Of a stretch of DNA of 64,000 bases, positions 2,028-63,393 are shown in pieces. A program made the position numbers and the translations under genes. The notes beneath the pieces were generated by a model. That model saw nothing but the letters and a program-made list of their open reading frames with translations, was not told where the DNA came from and made no database searches. The first letter of the stretch is position 1. Each line of letters starts with the position of its first letter. The DNA lies in contig DHPU01000008.1 of the NCBI GenBank assembly GCA_002407935.1, positions 9,430 to 73,429 on the forward strand, written 5' to 3'. The stretch is from Peptococcaceae bacterium UBA5356 (GTDB taxonomy: Bacteria; Bacillota; Peptococcia; DRI-13; DTU073).

Positions 2028-4526
2028 GTGCAGGAAAAATACAATTTCAAAGAAATTGAAAAAAAGTGGCAGGACAAATGGGAAAGCAGTTCATTGAATA
2101 GCGTTAAGGAAGATTTACAAAAAGAAAAATATTACTGCTTGGAAATGTTCCCGTATCCCTCCGGAAACTTGCATATGGGTCATGTACGAAACTATTCTAT
2201 TGGTGATGTGGTAGCCCGTTTTAAGATGATGAGAGGATTTAATGTTCTTCATCCCATGGGTTGGGATTCTTTTGGGCTTCCGGCGGAAAATGCCGCTATT
2301 AAAAATAAAATTCCTCCGGCTACATGGACCATGGATAATATTCAAAACATGAAAGATCAACTGAAATCTATGGGGATTAGTTATGACTGGGAAAGAGAGT
2401 TTACAACATCGCTCCCTGATTATTATAAATGGACCCAATGGCTTTTCCTGCAATTTTACGAACATGGTTTGGCTTATAAGAAAAAAGGGCATGTTAATTG
2501 GTGCCCGGATTGTGCTACGGTTTTAGCAAATGAACAGGTAGTTAACGGGGCTTGTGAACGGTGTGACACGCCCGTAGAAAAGAAGGCGTTAGATCAATGG
2601 TATTTCCGGATAACCGATTATGCACAGGAGCTTTTGGATAGTTTGGAGGATTTGCCCGGTTGGCCGGATAAGGTTAAGACGATGCAGGAAAACTGGATTG
2701 GACGCAGCGAAGGGGCCGAGATATATTTTACGGAGGAAACGACCGGAGAAAGAATTCGTGTTTATACCACACGTCCGGATACGGCTTTTGGGGTGACTTA
2801 TGTCGTGTTGGCACCGGAACATCCGATGGTGGAGAGATTTATTGAAGGTACCGAATATCAACAACCGGTGAGGGATTTTGTGAAAAAAGTACAACAAATG
2901 AGTGAAATTGTTCGTACTTCAGCGGAAACAGAAAAAGAAGGGATGTTTATCGGGGCCTATGTTCTAAATCCGGTAAATCAAGAAAAAATACCTGTTTGGG
3001 TAGCTAATTATGTTTTATATGAATATGGTACAGGTGCGGTCATGGGTGTACCGGCACATGATGAAAGGGATTTTATGTTTGCCCGGAAATATCAGCTCCC
3101 GATTCGTTTGGTTATTCAGCCGTTTGACACTGAAATTACTGAGGATACGGAGGTTAATCCGCAAGAAATAACGGAAGCTTACGTCGGAGAGGGAATAATG
3201 GTTAATTCCGGATCCTTTAACGGCCTTACTAATCAAGAGGGTTTACGTAAGATCCCTGAATATCTGGAAAAGATACGCGCAGGCAAAATGAAGGTAAATT
3301 ATCGCTTGCGAGATTGGCTTATTTCTCGTCAACGTTACTGGGGAGCGCCTATTCCGATCGTTTATTGTGAAAAGTGTGGAGCTCAAGCGGTGTCGGAAAA
3401 AGAATTACCGGTAATTCTTCCGTTGGATGTAGAGTTTCGCCCTACTGGGGAATCGCCCCTTAACCATATTGCGGAATTTCTGCATACCGAGTGCCCTAAG
3501 TGTGGCGGGCCAGCTAGAAGAGAAACAGATACGATGGATACCTTTGTTTGTTCTTCCTGGTATTTTTTACGCTATACTGATTCTCAAAATGCAGAGGAAG
3601 CTTTTAAGCGGGAGAAAGCAGATTATTGGATGAATGTCGATCAATATATTGGTGGCGTAGAACATGCGATTCTGCATTTAATGTATGCTCGTTTCTTTAC
3701 GAAGGCGTTAGCGGATTTTGGCTTATTGGCAGCAAGGGAACCTTTTCAAAATTTGTTAACACAGGGCATGGTGCTGAAAGAAGGCACGAAGATGTCTAAA
3801 TCCAAAGGCAATGTAGTTAGTCCTGAGGAAATTATTAAGCAATATGGAGCGGATACGGCTCGCCTCTTTATCCTTTTTGCTGCACCGCCGGAAAGAGATT
3901 TGGAATGGAGCGACCAGGGCGTAGAAGGTTGTTATCGGTTCATTAACCGGGTGTGGCGTCTCGTCTATAGTTATAAAGAGGAGCTAAATAATAACAGTGC
4001 TTCTTTTCTTGATACAGCTGTGTCTTCAGAAGAAGACAAAAATTTAAAGCGGCTTTTGCATGGCACGATTAAGAAAGTGACAGAGGATTTGGATCTTCGC
4101 TTTAACTTTAATACGGCCATAAGTGCGATTATGGAGCTGGTTAATGGTCTTTATCATTACCGGGAAAAGAAGCCACAGAATAAAAACCTCTTACAGGAAA
4201 GTATGGAGGCACTCATTGTACTTTTAGCACCTTTTGCCCCACATCTTAGTGAAGAACTTTGGGAGGTTATCGGTCATACGGAAAGCGTTCATTTTCAGTC
4301 TTGGCCTAAATATAATGAAGAAGCTTTAAAGGTTGAGAAAGTGGAAATCGTTTTACAGATTAACGGAAAAGTAAGAGAACGTCTGATTGTTCCTGCTGCG
4401 ATAGATCGTGTAGCATTAGAAAAGATGGCCTTGTCCACGGAAAAGGCTAAAGCAGCTATGGCAGATAAGCAGATTGTTAAAGTTATCACTATCCCGGATA
4501 AATTAGTTAATATTGTTTTAAAATAA
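2028..4526 (+). CDS. leuS: Leucyl-tRNA synthetase
   Basis: Class I aaRS HIGH motif ([13 protein letters not shown]) and KMSKS motif (TKMSKSKGN). Length 832 aa, GTG start, T-box(Leu) upstream. Confidence 0.98.
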
Positions 4527-4578: not shown

Positions 4579-5256
4579 ATGAAAAAAGTCTATGAGGGTA
4601 AGACGAAAACAGTTTATGAGGCTGAAGATGGGAACTATCTATTGTTGTTTAAAGATGACGTCACAGGAGACGGGGATATCGTTGATCCCGGTGGAAATAC
4701 GGTAGTAGGTAGAGTAGAAGGTAAGGGCAATGCCTCTTTAAGGATGTCCAGATATTTCTTTGAGATATTGCAAGATGCCGGAATCCCTACTCACTATGTC
4801 GAGGCCAATTTAGATAATAATACGATGCTTGTGAAGAAAGCGGAGCACTTTGGTAGTGGTTTAGAGTTTGTATGCAGGCTGCAGGCTACCGGTAGCTTTA
4901 TTCGTAGATATGGGAAGTATGCTCAGGAAGGTCAGCCGCTGGATTATTTAGTAGAGATTACTTTAAAGGATGATTTAAGAGGAGATCCTTTAGTTAATGA
5001 TGAAACTTTAGTTCAGCTTAACTTGATGACTGCTGAGGAAATAAATAATGTGAAGAAAACAACGAAGGATATTACGCGGTTAATTAAGAAGAAGTATGAT
5101 GAATTAGGATTAGAATTGATTGATATTAAACTGGAGTTTGGCAGGGTTGAGGGAAAGATTGCGCTGATCGACGAAATATCCGGGGATAACATGAGGGTTA
5201 AACAGGATGATAGAATCCTGCTGCAAAAGAAACTTTGCGAAATAGTTTGTGGTTAA
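4579..5256 (+). CDS. purC: SAICAR synthetase family protein (PurC-like, divergent, stand-alone)
   Basis: MKKVYEGKTKTVYE start, KDD.TG....I.GKG, LEFVCR, KDDLRGDPLV and IDIKLEFG....LIDEIS match the PurC pattern. The ATG at 4579 is preferred over the 4546 start in the ORF track. Confidence 0.7.
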   Translation: MKKVYEGKTKTVYEAEDGNYLLLFKDDVTGDGDIVDPGGNTVVGRVEGKGNASLRMSRYFFEILQDAGIPTHYVEANLDNNTMLVKKAEHFGSGLEFVCRLQATGSFIRRYGKYAQEGQPLDYLVEITLKDDLRGDPLVNDETLVQLNLMTAEEINNVKKTTKDITRLIKKKYDELGLELIDIKLEFGRVEGKIALIDEISGDNMRVKQDDRILLQKKLCEIVCG

Positions 5257-5285
5257 GGCTAACGGCACTTGCGGAATTATTTAAG

Positions 5286-5987
5286 ATGGGATGTGATAAA
5301 AAAATGCTGTTCAAGGGTGTAGTTTTTGATTTGGATGGGACATTACTTAATTCGCTGGAGGATTTAGCCGATTCTACTAATACGGTATTGGCAAGGCTCG
5401 GGTTCCCTTGTCATGAGCTGGAAAAGTATAATTATTTTGTAGGGGACGGGATGTTTAATCTGCTGCGCAGGGCTTTACCTGCCGAGCGGCAAGAGGATAA
5501 TGATTTTATTAAAAAATGTGTGGTAGCAATGAAGGAAGAGTACAGTAAACATTGGAGTGATAAAACCAGACCTTATCATGGAGTTATGGATTTGCTTCGG
5601 ATATTACGGAAAAAAGAGTTGAAACTGGCCGTCTTATCTAATAAGCCGCATGAATTTACGCAGGTGGTAGTTGAAAAGTATTTTCCCGGGCATTTTGATC
5701 TGGCTTTCGGAGAAAGATCCGGTATTCCAAGAAAACCGGATCCGCAAGGGGCGTTAGCTATAGCTGAGGCTATGCAGCTTACGCCTGCCGAGTTCTTGTA
5801 TCTGGGAGATACCAATACGGATATGCGGACGGCCGTTGCCGCCGGCATGTTTCCGGTTGGGGTGCTTTGGGGTTTTCGATCGGCAGAAGAGATCTTGGCC
5901 GCCGGAGCCAAGGTCTTAATTGAGCATCCGTCGGAACTGCTGAAATCATTAAACTACCCTTCCTTCCAAGGACATTGTACGACTTGA
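5286..5987 (+). CDS. HAD-superfamily hydrolase (phosphoglycolate phosphatase-like)
   Basis: HAD motif I VVFDLDGTLLNS, motif II LSNK, motif IV YLGDTNTDM. The start is ambiguous: 5235 TTG, 5286 ATG or 5304 ATG (the last giving MLFKGVVFDLDGT). Confidence 0.85.
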   Translation: MGCDKKMLFKGVVFDLDGTLLNSLEDLADSTNTVLARLGFPCHELEKYNYFVGDGMFNLLRRALPAERQEDNDFIKKCVVAMKEEYSKHWSDKTRPYHGVMDLLRILRKKELKLAVLSNKPHEFTQVVVEKYFPGHFDLAFGERSGIPRKPDPQGALAIAEAMQLTPAEFLYLGDTNTDMRTAVAAGMFPVGVLWGFRSAEEILAAGAKVLIEHPSELLKSLNYPSFQGHCTT

Positions 5988-31985: not shown

Positions 31986-32160
31986 AATAAATTTAAACCT
32001 CCTAATTATTTTGGAAATTATTACCTAAAAGCTTATTTACAAACTTTTCTTATTATATAAAAAATTTTCATGGTTGGCAAGAGCTAAAAGAATGGTTTTT
32101 ATAATGAGAATATGTTAAACTAAAAAAATAGTAGTTCAATAATTACTAACGGGGTGGAAA

Positions 32161-33483
32161 ATGAAAAAGAAGATTTTTTTAAAAGGCTTGTTAGTTTGCT
32201 TAATTTTGCTTTTCTGTGCGTTTAATTTATTAGCGGCAACTTCTTCAAAGGTATATGTTATACCTGTCCAAAAAACGATAGATCCGGGTTTAGCCAGTTT
32301 TATGGAAAGAAGTTATCAGGAAGCGGAAAGTCTTAAAGCAAAGTTAATTATTTTGGAGGTGGATACCCCCGGTGGGCGGGTTGATGCCGCTGAAAAAATC
32401 AAAAAAGTGATTAATAACAGCACGATTCCTACTATAGCGTTGGTGAAGGGTGGGGCGATTTCGGCAGGAGCTTATATTACCTTAGCTTGTCCGCAAATAG
32501 CCATGATACCCGGTTCAACAATAGGGGATGCGGAACCGCGGTTAAGCAGCGGCGAGAGGGTTGATGAAAAGTTCGTCTCTTATTGGGCGGCAGAAATGGG
32601 TACTACGGCTGAAAAAAACGGGAGAGACAGAGAAATTGCGATGGCTATGGCCGACCGGGATATTGAGATTCCCGGAGTGGTAGAAAAAGGCAAGTTATTG
32701 ACCTTTACTTATCAGCAGGCGAAGGAGCACGGTTATGCCGATTATATTGTAAAGGATCGGGCAGAATTGTTACAGGTACTGAAATTAGATGAAGCAGAAG
32801 CGGTTGAGGCGAAGCCGACGGTAGCCGAAAAATTGACCCGGATAGTAACAAATCCATATATGGCTTCTCTCCTTTTGACAATAGGTATTGCGGGGATTAT
32901 TATTGAGATTTTTACGATAGGGTTTGGTCTTGCGGGGTTTTTGGGGATTGCTTCTTTAGCTCTTTATTTTGGGGGGCATCTTTTAGCGGGCTTTAGTGGT
33001 TGGGAAGCGATTCTGCTTTTCTTGCTGGGGATCATCCTTTTGGGGATAGAAGCACTTGTACCCGGATTTGGATTACCGGGGTTAGGGGGAATAATTAGTA
33101 TTATTGTGGGAATTGTACTGGCTGCTCCGAGCTGGGAGGCGGGGATAGCCTCTTTAGTTATGGCGATTGTGGGGACAATTATTTTGGTATTGCTTAGCTT
33201 TAAGGTATTGACGAAAAGAAGGTTTTGGGATCGGTTGGTTTTGGGCACGAAATATAACAAAGAGGCCGGTTACATCCCCCAAAAAGAGGACTTTAACAGG
33301 TATATTGGCAAACAGGGGGAAGCCCTTACGATTCTCAGACCGGCCGGGACGGTTCTTCTTGAAGATGGAACCAGACTTGATGTGGTGACCGATGGCGGTT
33401 TCATTCAAAAAGGAGAACGGGTGGAGGTAATTGGGGCTGAAGGGATAAGGTTGATTGTGCGTGAAAAACGCGAAACAAATTAA
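32161..33483 (+). CDS. NfeD-family membrane-bound ClpP-class serine protease (YqeZ-like)
   Basis: Signal peptide, ClpP-like domain (DTPGGRVDAA ... GGAISAGAYI), multi-TM middle and a C-terminal OB-fold NfeD domain; upstream of floA as in Bacillus yqeZ-yqfA. Confidence 0.85.
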   Translation: MKKKIFLKGLLVCLILLFCAFNLLAATSSKVYVIPVQKTIDPGLASFMERSYQEAESLKAKLIILEVDTPGGRVDAAEKIKKVINNSTIPTIALVKGGAISAGAYITLACPQIAMIPGSTIGDAEPRLSSGERVDEKFVSYWAAEMGTTAEKNGRDREIAMAMADRDIEIPGVVEKGKLLTFTYQQAKEHGYADYIVKDRAELLQVLKLDEAEAVEAKPTVAEKLTRIVTNPYMASLLLTIGIAGIIIEIFTIGFGLAGFLGIASLALYFGGHLLAGFSGWEAILLFLLGIILLGIEALVPGFGLPGLGGIISIIVGIVLAAPSWEAGIASLVMAIVGTIILVLLSFKVLTKRRFWDRLVLGTKYNKEAGYIPQKEDFNRYIGKQGEALTILRPAGTVLLEDGTRLDVVTDGGFIQKGERVEVIGAEGIRLIVREKRETN

Positions 33484-61533: not shown

Positions 61534-62583
61534 GTGGACATGAGATTCAAGTATATCTTAGGGGGCTTTGCCGCATTTTTCTTGAGTATGGCGCTCGGGA
61601 TGGTTACGTATTATTATATTCATCCGTTACTGCCCAAGGAAATGGCAATGTATGAATTAAAAAAGGAGATAGACGAAGAAGCAGAGGAAAAAGCAGTGGC
61701 ATATTCCTTCAATGGATGGAAGGATAAGCCGAGGAAAAGGGCTTTGGCAGTAGTGATTGATAATGAGGAAGAGGCCAGGCCGCAAGCTGGGCTGGAACGG
61801 GCAGATGTAGTAGTGGAATTACCGATTGAAGGAGGGATAACTCGTTTTATTGCAATTATCTCTCGAGAAGATTCGGATTTGGTTGGGCCTGTTCGCAGTG
61901 CCAGACCCCATTTTGTGGAACTGGCTGGGGAGTATAAGGCCATTTTGGTTCATGCCGGAGGCTCTGAAGAGGCCTTGCAGAAAATAGCGACAGAAGAACC
62001 GGATCACCTTGATCAGATATACGGTGGGTATCAGGTAGCGGCTGCTTTCTGGCGTACACCGGATCAACGCAAGCCCCATAATCTTTTTACCAGTTACGAT
62101 ACTTTACGTCGGGTGGCGAAACAATTAAAAATGAATATTACTTTCTTACCTCCTCAGCGTCTGCTCTTAAGTCAGGATGCGGAAGTCACGGGAGAGGAAG
62201 TTGAGGATTTGCATATTTTTTATTCCCATAAAAGTTATTTAGTACGTTTCGTTTTTAATAAGGAGAAGGGAATTTTCGAGAGATTTATTTCTGATAAGGA
62301 TAAACCACATTTAAATGCGGCAGGTGAACAATTAACGGCGGCTAATGTACTTGTTCAATTTGCCCCTTATCGTTATAAGGATGGGGATGGTCATCTGCAA
62401 CTGATTATGGATGGGGAAGGAGAGGCACTGATTTTCCGTGCCGGCAAGGTAATCAAAGGGCGATGGGAAAAGACACCGGGGAATCTTACAAAGTTTACCG
62501 ATGAAAAAGGAACGGTGGTTCCTTTGTTGGAAGGGCCTACCTGGATTGAGGTTGTTCCTCAGGGAAGCAGGGTGGATTATTAA
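61534..62583 (+). CDS. DUF3048 domain protein (YerB-like, membrane-anchored)
   Basis: RALAVVIDNEEEARPQAGLERADVVVELPIEGGITRFIAII ... RSARPHF matches the DUF3048 pattern; N-terminal TM helix; GTG start. Confidence 0.7.
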   Translation: MDMRFKYILGGFAAFFLSMALGMVTYYYIHPLLPKEMAMYELKKEIDEEAEEKAVAYSFNGWKDKPRKRALAVVIDNEEEARPQAGLERADVVVELPIEGGITRFIAIISREDSDLVGPVRSARPHFVELAGEYKAILVHAGGSEEALQKIATEEPDHLDQIYGGYQVAAAFWRTPDQRKPHNLFTSYDTLRRVAKQLKMNITFLPPQRLLLSQDAEVTGEEVEDLHIFYSHKSYLVRFVFNKEKGIFERFISDKDKPHLNAAGEQLTAANVLVQFAPYRYKDGDGHLQLIMDGEGEALIFRAGKVIKGRWEKTPGNLTKFTDEKGTVVPLLEGPTWIEVVPQGSRVDY

Positions 62584-62591
62584 GGGTAAAC

Positions 62592-62829
62592 ATGTGTCCT
62601 TCGTTGTTTTAGTCAAGGATTACCTCGGGGTTCCAAATTCTCGGACAGAACAGTCCTAAGCTTGGTTCGGCGTGATACCGACCGGGCTCAATTCGCCTCC
62701 CTGCTCAGTTCGCCCTAGCGCCGATCTCCTTGTCGGCGACTTCGGTATCACTAGCCTCACCTTCGCTAAGGATGTTTAGCTGCCCGATGATAGTCACCCT
62801 CCGGTAATGCCTTGCCTAAAACGGCACAT
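62592..62829 (+). ncRNA. Candidate structured RNA (~240-nt irregular rod-like hairpin; 6S-like shape, identity and strand uncertain)
   Basis: Non-coding in all six frames and GC-richer than its surroundings. Long-range pairings: atgtg(t)cc/ggcacat, gttttag/ctaaaac, caagg/ccttg, attacc/ggtaat, tcggacag/ctgcccga, gtgataccga/tcggtatcac. Apical hairpin cgccga...tcggcg. Confidence 0.4.
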
Positions 62830-62946
62830 TTCCTATTTCGAATCTCGAGTAGGGCAGCACAACATATTTACCCCTTTACGAAGGGATATATTCAGTGGAG
62901 CACATGCTTTTAGATAAGTTAAACTGTAAGATCGGGGGTAAAAAAA

Positions 62947-63393
62947 ATGGCGGAGATGAAGCAAGAAAAGAATTGGAGTTGTGAACGGGAAGCAGAATTG
63001 ATAGAGATGGCCGGAAGGGTGCGTGAAAATGCGTATGCCCCTTATTCTCATTTTAAAGTGGGAGCAGCACTGTTGGCTGATGATGGGAAGATCTATCCGG
63101 GTTGTAATGTAGAAAACGCTTCTTATGGATTATCTGTCTGTGCGGAAAGAGCGGCAGTTTTTCATGCTGTTTCTCATGGGGCAACTTCGTTTCAAGCGTT
63201 AGCCGTAATAGCGGATTTAGAGGAGCCGGTTCCGCCTTGTGGGGCTTGTCGCCAGATCTTAGCGGAGTTTTCTCAGGAGATGCCGATCATTATGACAAAT
63301 TTACAGGGGAAGATTAGGCGGATGAAAGTGCAAGATTTATTACCGTACGTCTTTATCCCTGATGAATTACGGGAGGAAAAAGTTGATGACTGA
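62947..63393 (+). CDS. cdd: Cytidine deaminase
   Basis: Zinc motifs CAERAA and PCGACRQ; ~148 aa; cdd-era synteny. Confidence 0.95.
   Translation: MAEMKQEKNWSCEREAELIEMAGRVRENAYAPYSHFKVGAALLADDGKIYPGCNVENASYGLSVCAERAAVFHAVSHGATSFQALAVIADLEEPVPPCGACRQILAEFSQEMPIIMTNLQGKIRRMKVQDLLPYVFIPDELREEKVDD

Follow-up and report, generated by a model that had tools for sequence, protein, structure and literature searches.

A 294-nt rod-shaped insertion between a DUF3048 gene and cdd in a Peptococcaceae bacterium, probably a diverged TwoAYGGAY-type element

The gap between a DUF3048 gene and cdd was investigated in a 64,000-nt stretch of Peptococcaceae bacterium UBA5356 (GenBank assembly GCA_002407935.1, contig DHPU01000008.1, positions 9,430 to 73,429), hereafter the window, to which coordinates refer unless another record is named. 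We find that this gap holds a 294-nt unit (62587-62880), inserted 3 nt past the DUF3048 stop codon with the pentanucleotide AAGGG duplicated at its ends, and that the unit is not a conserved RNA gene. Read on the minus strand, it forms a long rod whose apex resembles the TwoAYGGAY RNAs (Rfam RF01731), and we consider it probable that this is a rod element of the TwoAYGGAY type, since diverged, which entered an operon in antisense orientation. A sequence-only reading of the region had hesitated between a structured RNA and a palindrome akin to a MITE (a transposable element of the miniature inverted-repeat kind); both halves of that proposal hold in part, the insertion having a MITE-like anatomy and the minus-strand apex being TwoAYGGAY-like. 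We nevertheless file the element in neither family, since it stays under the TwoAYGGAY threshold and its loops are not the literal ones, and since neither the multiple copies nor the parent transposase of a MITE turned up in the sequences searched. The features on which the argument relies are the following:

62582-62586, left copy of AAGGG, overlapping the last two bases of the DUF3048 stop codon
62881-62885, right copy of AAGGG, placed by alignment to the empty site
62587-62880, inserted rod element of 294 nt, probable sense minus; limits from alignment to the empty site
62584-62595, left arm of the terminal inverted repeat, GGGTAAACATGT, pairing with 62862-62873 over 12 nt (92% complementary)
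62862-62873, right arm of the terminal inverted repeat, ACATATTTACCC, followed by CTTTACG (62874-62880)
62672-62681, one strand of P2, the stem closing the junction, GTGATACCGA, pairing at 10/10 positions with 62742-62751; present in folds
62742-62751, other strand of P2, TCGGTATCAC, 10/10 complementary
62719-62738, minus strand, hairpin H1, CGCCGAC-AAGGAG-(A/G)UCGGCG, with a GGA-containing loop
62684-62715, minus strand, hairpin H2, GGGC-GA-ACU-GA-GC-[AGGGAG]-GC-GA-AUU-GA-GCCC, with two tandem G-A motifs
62636-62792, minus strand, core aligned to RF01731 (TwoAYGGAY), 23 bits, E 0.42

The insertion is defined by its empty sites. In L165, the closest relative (a sister species, ~89% nucleotide identity), and in L196, a second sister-species sample with an identical empty site, the sequence reads TTATTAAGGGAGATATTC with a single AAGGG; at the same place the window reads TTATTAAGGG, then the 294 nt, then AAGGGATATATTC. 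No outgroup has the element at this locus, nor do two strains of the sister species, and the DUF3048-cdd gap, 363 nt long in the window (62584-62946), measures 11-82 nt in every relative with 47-63% DUF3048 protein identity. The rod is closed by the 12-nt terminal inverted repeat, the left arm of which overlaps the duplicated bases, leaving the ends ambiguous by 3 nt; the outermost bases on the other side, 62874-62880, read on the minus strand as an unpaired 5' leader, CGTAAAG. Other descriptions of the ends were considered and set aside. An 8-bp duplication (ATTATTAA/TTTACGAA) requires three later substitutions and is kept only as a less parsimonious alternative. Tn3-type ends read GGGG...TAAG and are accompanied by a 5-bp duplication; here the 5 bp outside GGG/CCCC mismatch (ATTAA vs TTTAC). 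Ends of the IS200/IS605 type were rejected because the element ends are inverted copies, not direct copies.

We then considered the fold of the unit. As RNA, its predicted energy is -104.0 kcal/mol on the plus strand (z -5.99) and -114.3 kcal/mol on the minus strand (z -5.44); folded as DNA it gives z -4.52, and 0/200 shuffles reach these energies in any of the three cases. An imperfect hairpin of ~100 bp forms on either strand. Its closing helix P1 comprises ~85 positions per arm, with bulges, and is roughly 75-80% paired, the arms pairing over their entire length and not at the ends only. In the minimum-free-energy folds of both known alleles (that of the window and that of the sister-species strain L195, described below), the apex is a three-way junction in which P2 closes two adjacent hairpins. 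The element is non-coding, with a longest open stretch of ~45 codons.

The long hairpin that had been noticed from the letters is thus real, its fold lying far beyond shuffles on both strands, and the arm pairs 62606-62618/62810-62822 (92%), 62619-62631/62796-62808 (77%) and 62672-62681/62742-62751 (10/10) were all recovered, as was the small apex hairpin 62719-62738, present in every fold. Its extent had been drawn too short, since the terminal inverted repeat closes it and the unit is 62587-62880, and the pairing that had been placed outermost, 62592-62599/62823-62829, amounts to this closing stem in another register. The 12-nt direct repeat reported in the apex is found at 62686-62697/62703-62714 and corresponds to the strands of H2, because both strands of a stem with symmetric G-A motifs resemble repeats. 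Doubt about the strand was also justified: thermodynamics cannot name it, because a DNA-level palindrome is equally stable on both strands, and only the covariance-model matches, the GGA loops and the tandem G-A pairs favour the minus strand. That the apex (62716-62727) might pair with the ribosome-binding site of cdd (62929-940) was considered and dropped, as a substitution in L195 weakens this pairing.

TwoAYGGAY RNAs, an orphan motif described in 2010 (Weinberg et al, 2010, PMC2864571), have 216 representatives; their P1 is "often very large" (PMC2864571 supplement) and one of their stems is reported to carry two tandem G-A motifs (PMC4333381). A small RNA binding a dimeric protein such as CsrA has been proposed, as a proposal only (PMC4333381). 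With the Rfam covariance models, TwoAYGGAY on the minus strand is the only family matched by both alleles of the element, and no family was matched on its plus strand. The core of the L195 allele (5083-5237 of that locus, minus strand) scores higher than that of the window, at 34.2 bits (E 0.0011 and 0.00055), the gathering cut-off of RF01731 being 43 bits. Note that the rod shape alone does not score, because a true copy searched on its reverse strand yields no match at E<=10. The permissive Rfam mode also returned SAM-SAH, RMST_8 and MIR6445, discarded as weak chance matches, and no tRNA or tmRNA origin was found.

The likeness extends to the details of the apex. The cmscan alignment correctly places the junction bases AG (between the hairpins) and CGG (after H2) as well as both GGA loops, and with the folds it gives a three-way junction with P2 paired at 10/10 positions; H2, read from the sequence, holds two tandem G-A motifs, and the ~85 positions per arm of the closing helix make a large P1. 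The two loops, AAGGAG and AGGGAG, keep the GGA core but are not literally AYGGAY. For H1, the loop context GACAAGGAGGUC occurs among members of the discoverers' alignment, in which CAAGGAG is present in 27 sequences and CAGGGAC 8 times; one member reads UGACAAGGAGGUCA, to be compared with CGACAAGGAG(A/G)UCG in the element. For H2, family members carry UUGAGCCAUGGACGGCGAAU and the element CUGAGC-AGGGAG-GCGAAU, the shared string being UGAGC..GGA..GCGAAU. In the reciprocal direction, a model built on the element only and run with filters off over 50 kb of Agathobacter rectalis has as its top match, with 12.9 bits and E 0.076, the core of a true TwoAYGGAY copy (c1, see below), and the strand is the correct one; a second true copy in the same 50 kb is not listed, and default filters return no match. 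In a structure-blind alignment with true members, only 26-29 of ~50 family pairs are standard.

What the true copies look like in a genome bears directly on this reading. A consensus search led to an A. rectalis record of 251 kb, NZ_CP143948.1 (L211-L215), in which one copy scores 159 bits. This record is labelled a plasmid, yet it carries ribosomal protein and rpoB/rpoC genes. Its copies lie as follows:

32116-32293, 74444-74729, 79833-80026 and 146581-146758 of NZ_CP143948.1, full TwoAYGGAY copies
141124-141183 of NZ_CP143948.1, TwoAYGGAY fragment

In 250 kb there are four full copies, all co-oriented with the genes on both sides, besides the fragment. Every full copy forms the tip of a rod of 270-290 nt. 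The outer stem, 45-50 bp long, is near-perfect and rich in GC for a genome of 41% GC, and no two copies have the same stem sequence: the cores are 80-92% identical and the outer stems are unrelated. The copies have a 5' leader ending in GTAAG, comparable to the CGTAAAG of the element. The fragment adjoins an IS607/TnpB pair. In Psychromonas ingrahamii, seven copies are found in the discoverers' alignment.

Copy c1 (L209 3940-4225, corresponding to 74444-74729 of NZ_CP143948.1; 159 bits), between hemerythrin and GGDEF genes, was followed across A. rectalis contigs (L216-L224, ~3007-3320): 7 have the site filled (L216-L218 among them), 2 have it empty (L219, L224), and 1 retains no more than a scar. 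The empty site reads AATAAA-GTACCGAA-TTTTATAG, with a junction repeat of only 2 bp, CC. The scar keeps the 28-nt 5' leader, the rod having been lost between the GACC repeats of both arms. Between strains (L216, L217, L218, L220, L221, L223, L209), the outer arms of 45-49 bp change together, with mirrored differences such as ACA/GCC, C/T and G-run lengths of 3, 5, 6 or 7, and they are 100% complementary in three alleles. This suggests that one c1 arm is copied from the other, or that selection for pairing is very strong. Overall, the multiple copies, the presence/absence polymorphism and the mirrored arms in A. rectalis, together with the seven copies of P. ingrahamii, indicate that the TwoAYGGAY family is dispersed and strain-variable, with some process keeping the arms identical. 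The 2-bp CC repeat also bears on the window: because of it, the AAGGG duplication may be microhomology rather than a transposase-made target duplication of fixed length.

Several observations weigh against assigning the element to this family. Both alleles score under the 43-bit cut-off (23 and 34.2 bits), and the H2 loop AGGGAG is absent from the discoverers' alignment (0 CAGGGAG). A model combining A. rectalis copies and the Rfam consensus gives only 11 bits (E 1.8) for L195 and leaves the window copy unlisted; its effective sequence number, 1.03, makes this model too narrow to test distant kinship. In alignments by sequence alone, the element comes no closer to true copies than shuffles do. 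The closing stem is ~75-80% paired vs near-perfect in the A. rectalis copies, the element is antisense to its neighbours while the four A. rectalis copies share the strand of theirs, and the junction repeat is 5 bp vs 2 bp (CC). Nor do the two alleles, 14 substitutions apart, offer a compensatory pair; several of the changes disrupt pairing on either strand. Finally, a second copy was found neither in the window nor in ~9 kb more of the contig, and searches of 1.2 Mb from related loci, of collections of plasmids, phages and viruses, and of protein space also gave none.

This last point rests on searches of several kinds. Extra copies, which the sequence-only reading had named as a sign of a MITE, did not appear: blastn of the element against the window gave no further copy, and blastn and nhmmer against all fetched loci gave the same locus only, covering also the ~9 kb of additional contig. 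No copy was present in the plasmid and phage collections, and of four scans in which patterns taken from the element were run over viral contigs, two gave nothing and two gave chance pattern matches only. A separate viral-contig match, to a TwoAYGGAY-like pattern (L210), is not a family member. A six-frame translation of the element against 5.8 billion proteins returned nothing at E<=10. Within the window, the terminal repeat with 3 mismatches allowed retrieves the element alone, the other foldbacks are not similar, and there is no transposase among the open reading frames (ORFs) checked.

These negatives also bear on the strongest alternative, an ordinary foldback MITE unrelated to TwoAYGGAY, moved by a transposase acting in trans with a 5-bp target duplication, the likeness of the tip being due to chance. 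By its anatomy the element fits the general MITE definition (PMC10969869): a non-coding unit of 294 nt, and hence less than 500 bp, with 12-nt terminal inverted repeats, a 5-bp direct repeat that is single in the empty site, relatives without the element, and a GC content richer than the host. The sub-threshold RF01731 scores and the nil sequence-only similarity agree with it as well. However, no second copy and no related terminal repeat occur in any sequence searched, none of the window ORFs checked is a candidate for the parent transposase, and the arms pair over their full length rather than at the ends only. Moreover, the detailed motif matches and the reciprocal top match are hard to call chance, and we regard this explanation as unlikely, though it is the one to be taken most seriously after the TwoAYGGAY-type reading.

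The distribution of the element among close relatives bears on its history. Full-length contigs that other samples gave for the species (L001-L003, L199-L201) carry it unchanged, and partial contigs of further samples show single differences at 62639 and 62785. The third sister-species strain, L195, carries it at the same site, 95.2% identical with 14 differences. L165, with its empty site, and L195 are ~98-99% identical overall. Left of the insertion point they differ at 12/233 sites, and right of it at 15/139, L195 having the window base at 14/15 of the latter; compared over window positions 62347-63024, L165 and L195 thus show a recombination tract around the site, with 5% divergence on the left and 11% on the right. 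In L195 the element lies within this tract, and the simplest account is import from a lineage near that of the window. The element would then have spread between close relatives via homologous recombination of its flanks.

Between the two lineages the element diverges by 4.8% overall and by 1.8% in its core (3 sites/169 nt), compared with 8.6% for the background, ~18% at third codon positions and 4.3% in the adjacent 139-nt flank. Purifying selection on the core was rejected as an explanation, for the low divergence is common to the flank and follows from a recent recombination tract that also covers it. In L195, a ~77-nt tandem duplication (5278-5431) comprises the right end of the element, AAGGG and 9 nt of flank; its units are only ~85% identical, with changes of their own in each, mostly C to T. 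Short-read contigs of four samples end in the apex (L192 at 62669, L193 and L194 at 62653) or start in it (L004, L197 and L198 at 62729). For two of these three positions, a known allele difference (62639, 62759) is found at a distance of exactly 30 nt; for 62653, no variant is known that would account for the break. A variable or invertible apex segment was not retained, as two of the three breaks fit a k=31 assembly of mixed strains.

The surroundings of the insertion are as follows:

61534-62583, plus strand, DUF3048 (YerB-like) gene, from its ORF, Pfam PF11258/PF17479 and homologues; stop codon TAA at 62581-62583
62886-62946, plus strand, native cdd leader with its ribosome-binding site (GGGGGT-A8-ATG), outside the insertion, aligning to the element-free L165 and L196
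62947-63393, plus strand, cdd (cytidine deaminase), with era downstream

The gene row at the locus, ybeY, a corC-like gene, DUF3048, cdd and era, is otherwise tight, and the cdd leader and ribosome-binding site are undamaged downstream of the element. As had been stated from the sequence, no ORF of at least 60 aa lies inside 62584-62946, the only ORFs of that size touching the gap being antisense ones running out of DUF3048 and cdd, and the region is GC-richer than its neighbours (53.4% for 62592-62829, vs 44.8% for DUF3048, 45.9% for cdd and 42.9% for the window). The promoter TTGTTC-N17-GATTAT suggested at its base does not hold, matching only 7/12 consensus positions and failing a promoter scan that gives 0 sites on either strand; these hexamers are the last DUF3048 codons and are equally present in strains without the element. 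No plus-strand terminator was found, so that the element would be co-transcribed if the gene row is one operon.

Such co-transcription, with an intact native cdd leader and ribosome-binding site, could also fit a plus-strand cis-acting mRNA structure recruited to uncouple or tune cdd-era, for example through RNase III processing or as a stabilising hairpin; the central 169 nt, which differ at only 3 sites despite the 8.6% background and the ~18% at third codon positions, could be read in the same direction. Yet that conservation is common to the 139-nt flank (4.3%) and points to the recombination tract, not to selection. Furthermore, 6/9 substitutions at paired positions break plus-strand pairs, strains and relatives manage without the element, and no plus-strand Rfam family is found. 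We therefore hold a cis-regulatory role to be improbable. A dedicated 6S-type small RNA gene, as the sequence-only reading had envisaged, can be dismissed as far as sequence analysis reaches: an overall rod shape with internal loops, and nothing else, speaks for it, against no 6S match at the gathering score over the whole window or at E<=10 over 62450-63000 on both strands, an apex that is a three-way junction, scattered small internal loops without a central bubble, no promoter or terminator, and no conservation at the locus in any relative.

We thus return to a TwoAYGGAY-type element, which would belong to, or derive from, a dispersed, insertion- and deletion-prone family. Because it lies antisense to the operon, the operon mRNA would hold only its complement, an imperfect ~100-bp hairpin whose loops read CUCCUU and CUCCCU. 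Only antisense transcription would produce the three-way junction and its two GGA loops as RNA, and no promoter for it is visible. Since, in addition, its closing stem is decayed, the window copy is most likely a passenger or a fossil, with at most a side effect on the processing of the operon mRNA. The hairpin should accordingly be regarded as an inserted passenger rather than a housekeeping RNA, and annotated neither as 6S nor as a cdd regulator.

For the family itself, the comparison implies that relatives of TwoAYGGAY exist under the Rfam threshold, beyond gut Lachnospiraceae and gamma-proteobacteria, and that true copies are multi-copy, differ in presence between conspecific strains and have long closing stems that evolve in concert. 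We tentatively raise a broader possibility, which we do not hold to be the likelier case, that TwoAYGGAY RNAs, rather than being ordinary small-RNA genes, are the conserved tip of an unrecognised class of mobile or insertion/deletion-prone rods of ~280 nt, of which the window would show a decayed member beside its empty site. With the same reserve, such rods would consist of a short single-stranded 5' leader and a hypervariable GC-rich closing stem whose arms are kept identical by copying. Should the points above on sub-threshold relatives, copy number and closing stems hold, the question posed by TwoAYGGAY would shift from the role of an RNA to how the element moves and what it does for itself or its host.

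Three observations elsewhere in the material are recorded here. In the window, ~20.9 kb (35034-55903) are replaced by 115 nt in a same-species contig (L199) that is 99.9-100% identical elsewhere; this segment holds ORFs of 1487, 4551 and 173 aa and an RHS-repeat protein, and resembles a strain-specific island encoding toxins or surface proteins. A T-box leader (RF00230, 136 bits), the only Rfam match at gathering score in the whole window, lies at 1715-1938 on the plus strand, upstream of an 832-aa ORF (2028-4526). An FMN riboswitch (113.6 bits) is present at 5504-5619 on the plus strand of L043, an Oscillospiraceae locus fetched for its DUF3048 gene.

Compared with known systems, the element shares with 6S RNA (RF00013) an elongated, mostly double-stranded form with internal loops, and is set apart from it by the lack of a model match and of a central bubble, and by being an insertion, neither conserved nor stand-alone. 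REPINs are paired REP sequences mobilised by RAYT transposases; they are ~100 nt long, lack a conserved three-way-junction tip as well as a flanking duplication, and are present as hundreds of nearly identical copies. The element resembles them as dispersed long intergenic hairpins whose arms stay complementary, but differs in size, in its three-way-junction tip, in its flanking duplication and in copy number.

Among MITEs, bcr1, which is flanked by a 5-bp repeat in the Bacillus cereus group, and Chunjie of Geobacter serve as examples. With such elements the unit has in common a length under 500 bp, the lack of coding capacity, a terminal inverted repeat, a 5-bp flanking direct repeat, a position between co-directional genes that are not destroyed, and a very stable RNA hairpin. 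It departs from them in that multiple copies, a parent transposase and a shared terminal repeat did not turn up in the sequences searched, and in being GC-rich rather than AT-rich; at the one true TwoAYGGAY site examined, moreover, the junction repeat is only 2 bp. From TwoAYGGAY the element differs by its 23-34 bits vs a cut-off of 43, by loops of which neither is literally AYGGAY and one, AGGGAG, is not in the discoverers' alignment, by a stem ~75-80% paired, by its antisense orientation to the neighbours, and by a single copy known in the host. It shares with that family, however, the three-way junction with two GGA-hexaloop hairpins and AG/CGG junction bases, the H1 loop AAGGAG and the H2 string UGAGC..GCGAAU found in family members, the single stem with two tandem G-A motifs, the very long closing stem within a rod of 270-295 nt, and a host in the Clostridia in the broad sense, the family being dispersed and strain-variable just as the element is an insertion.

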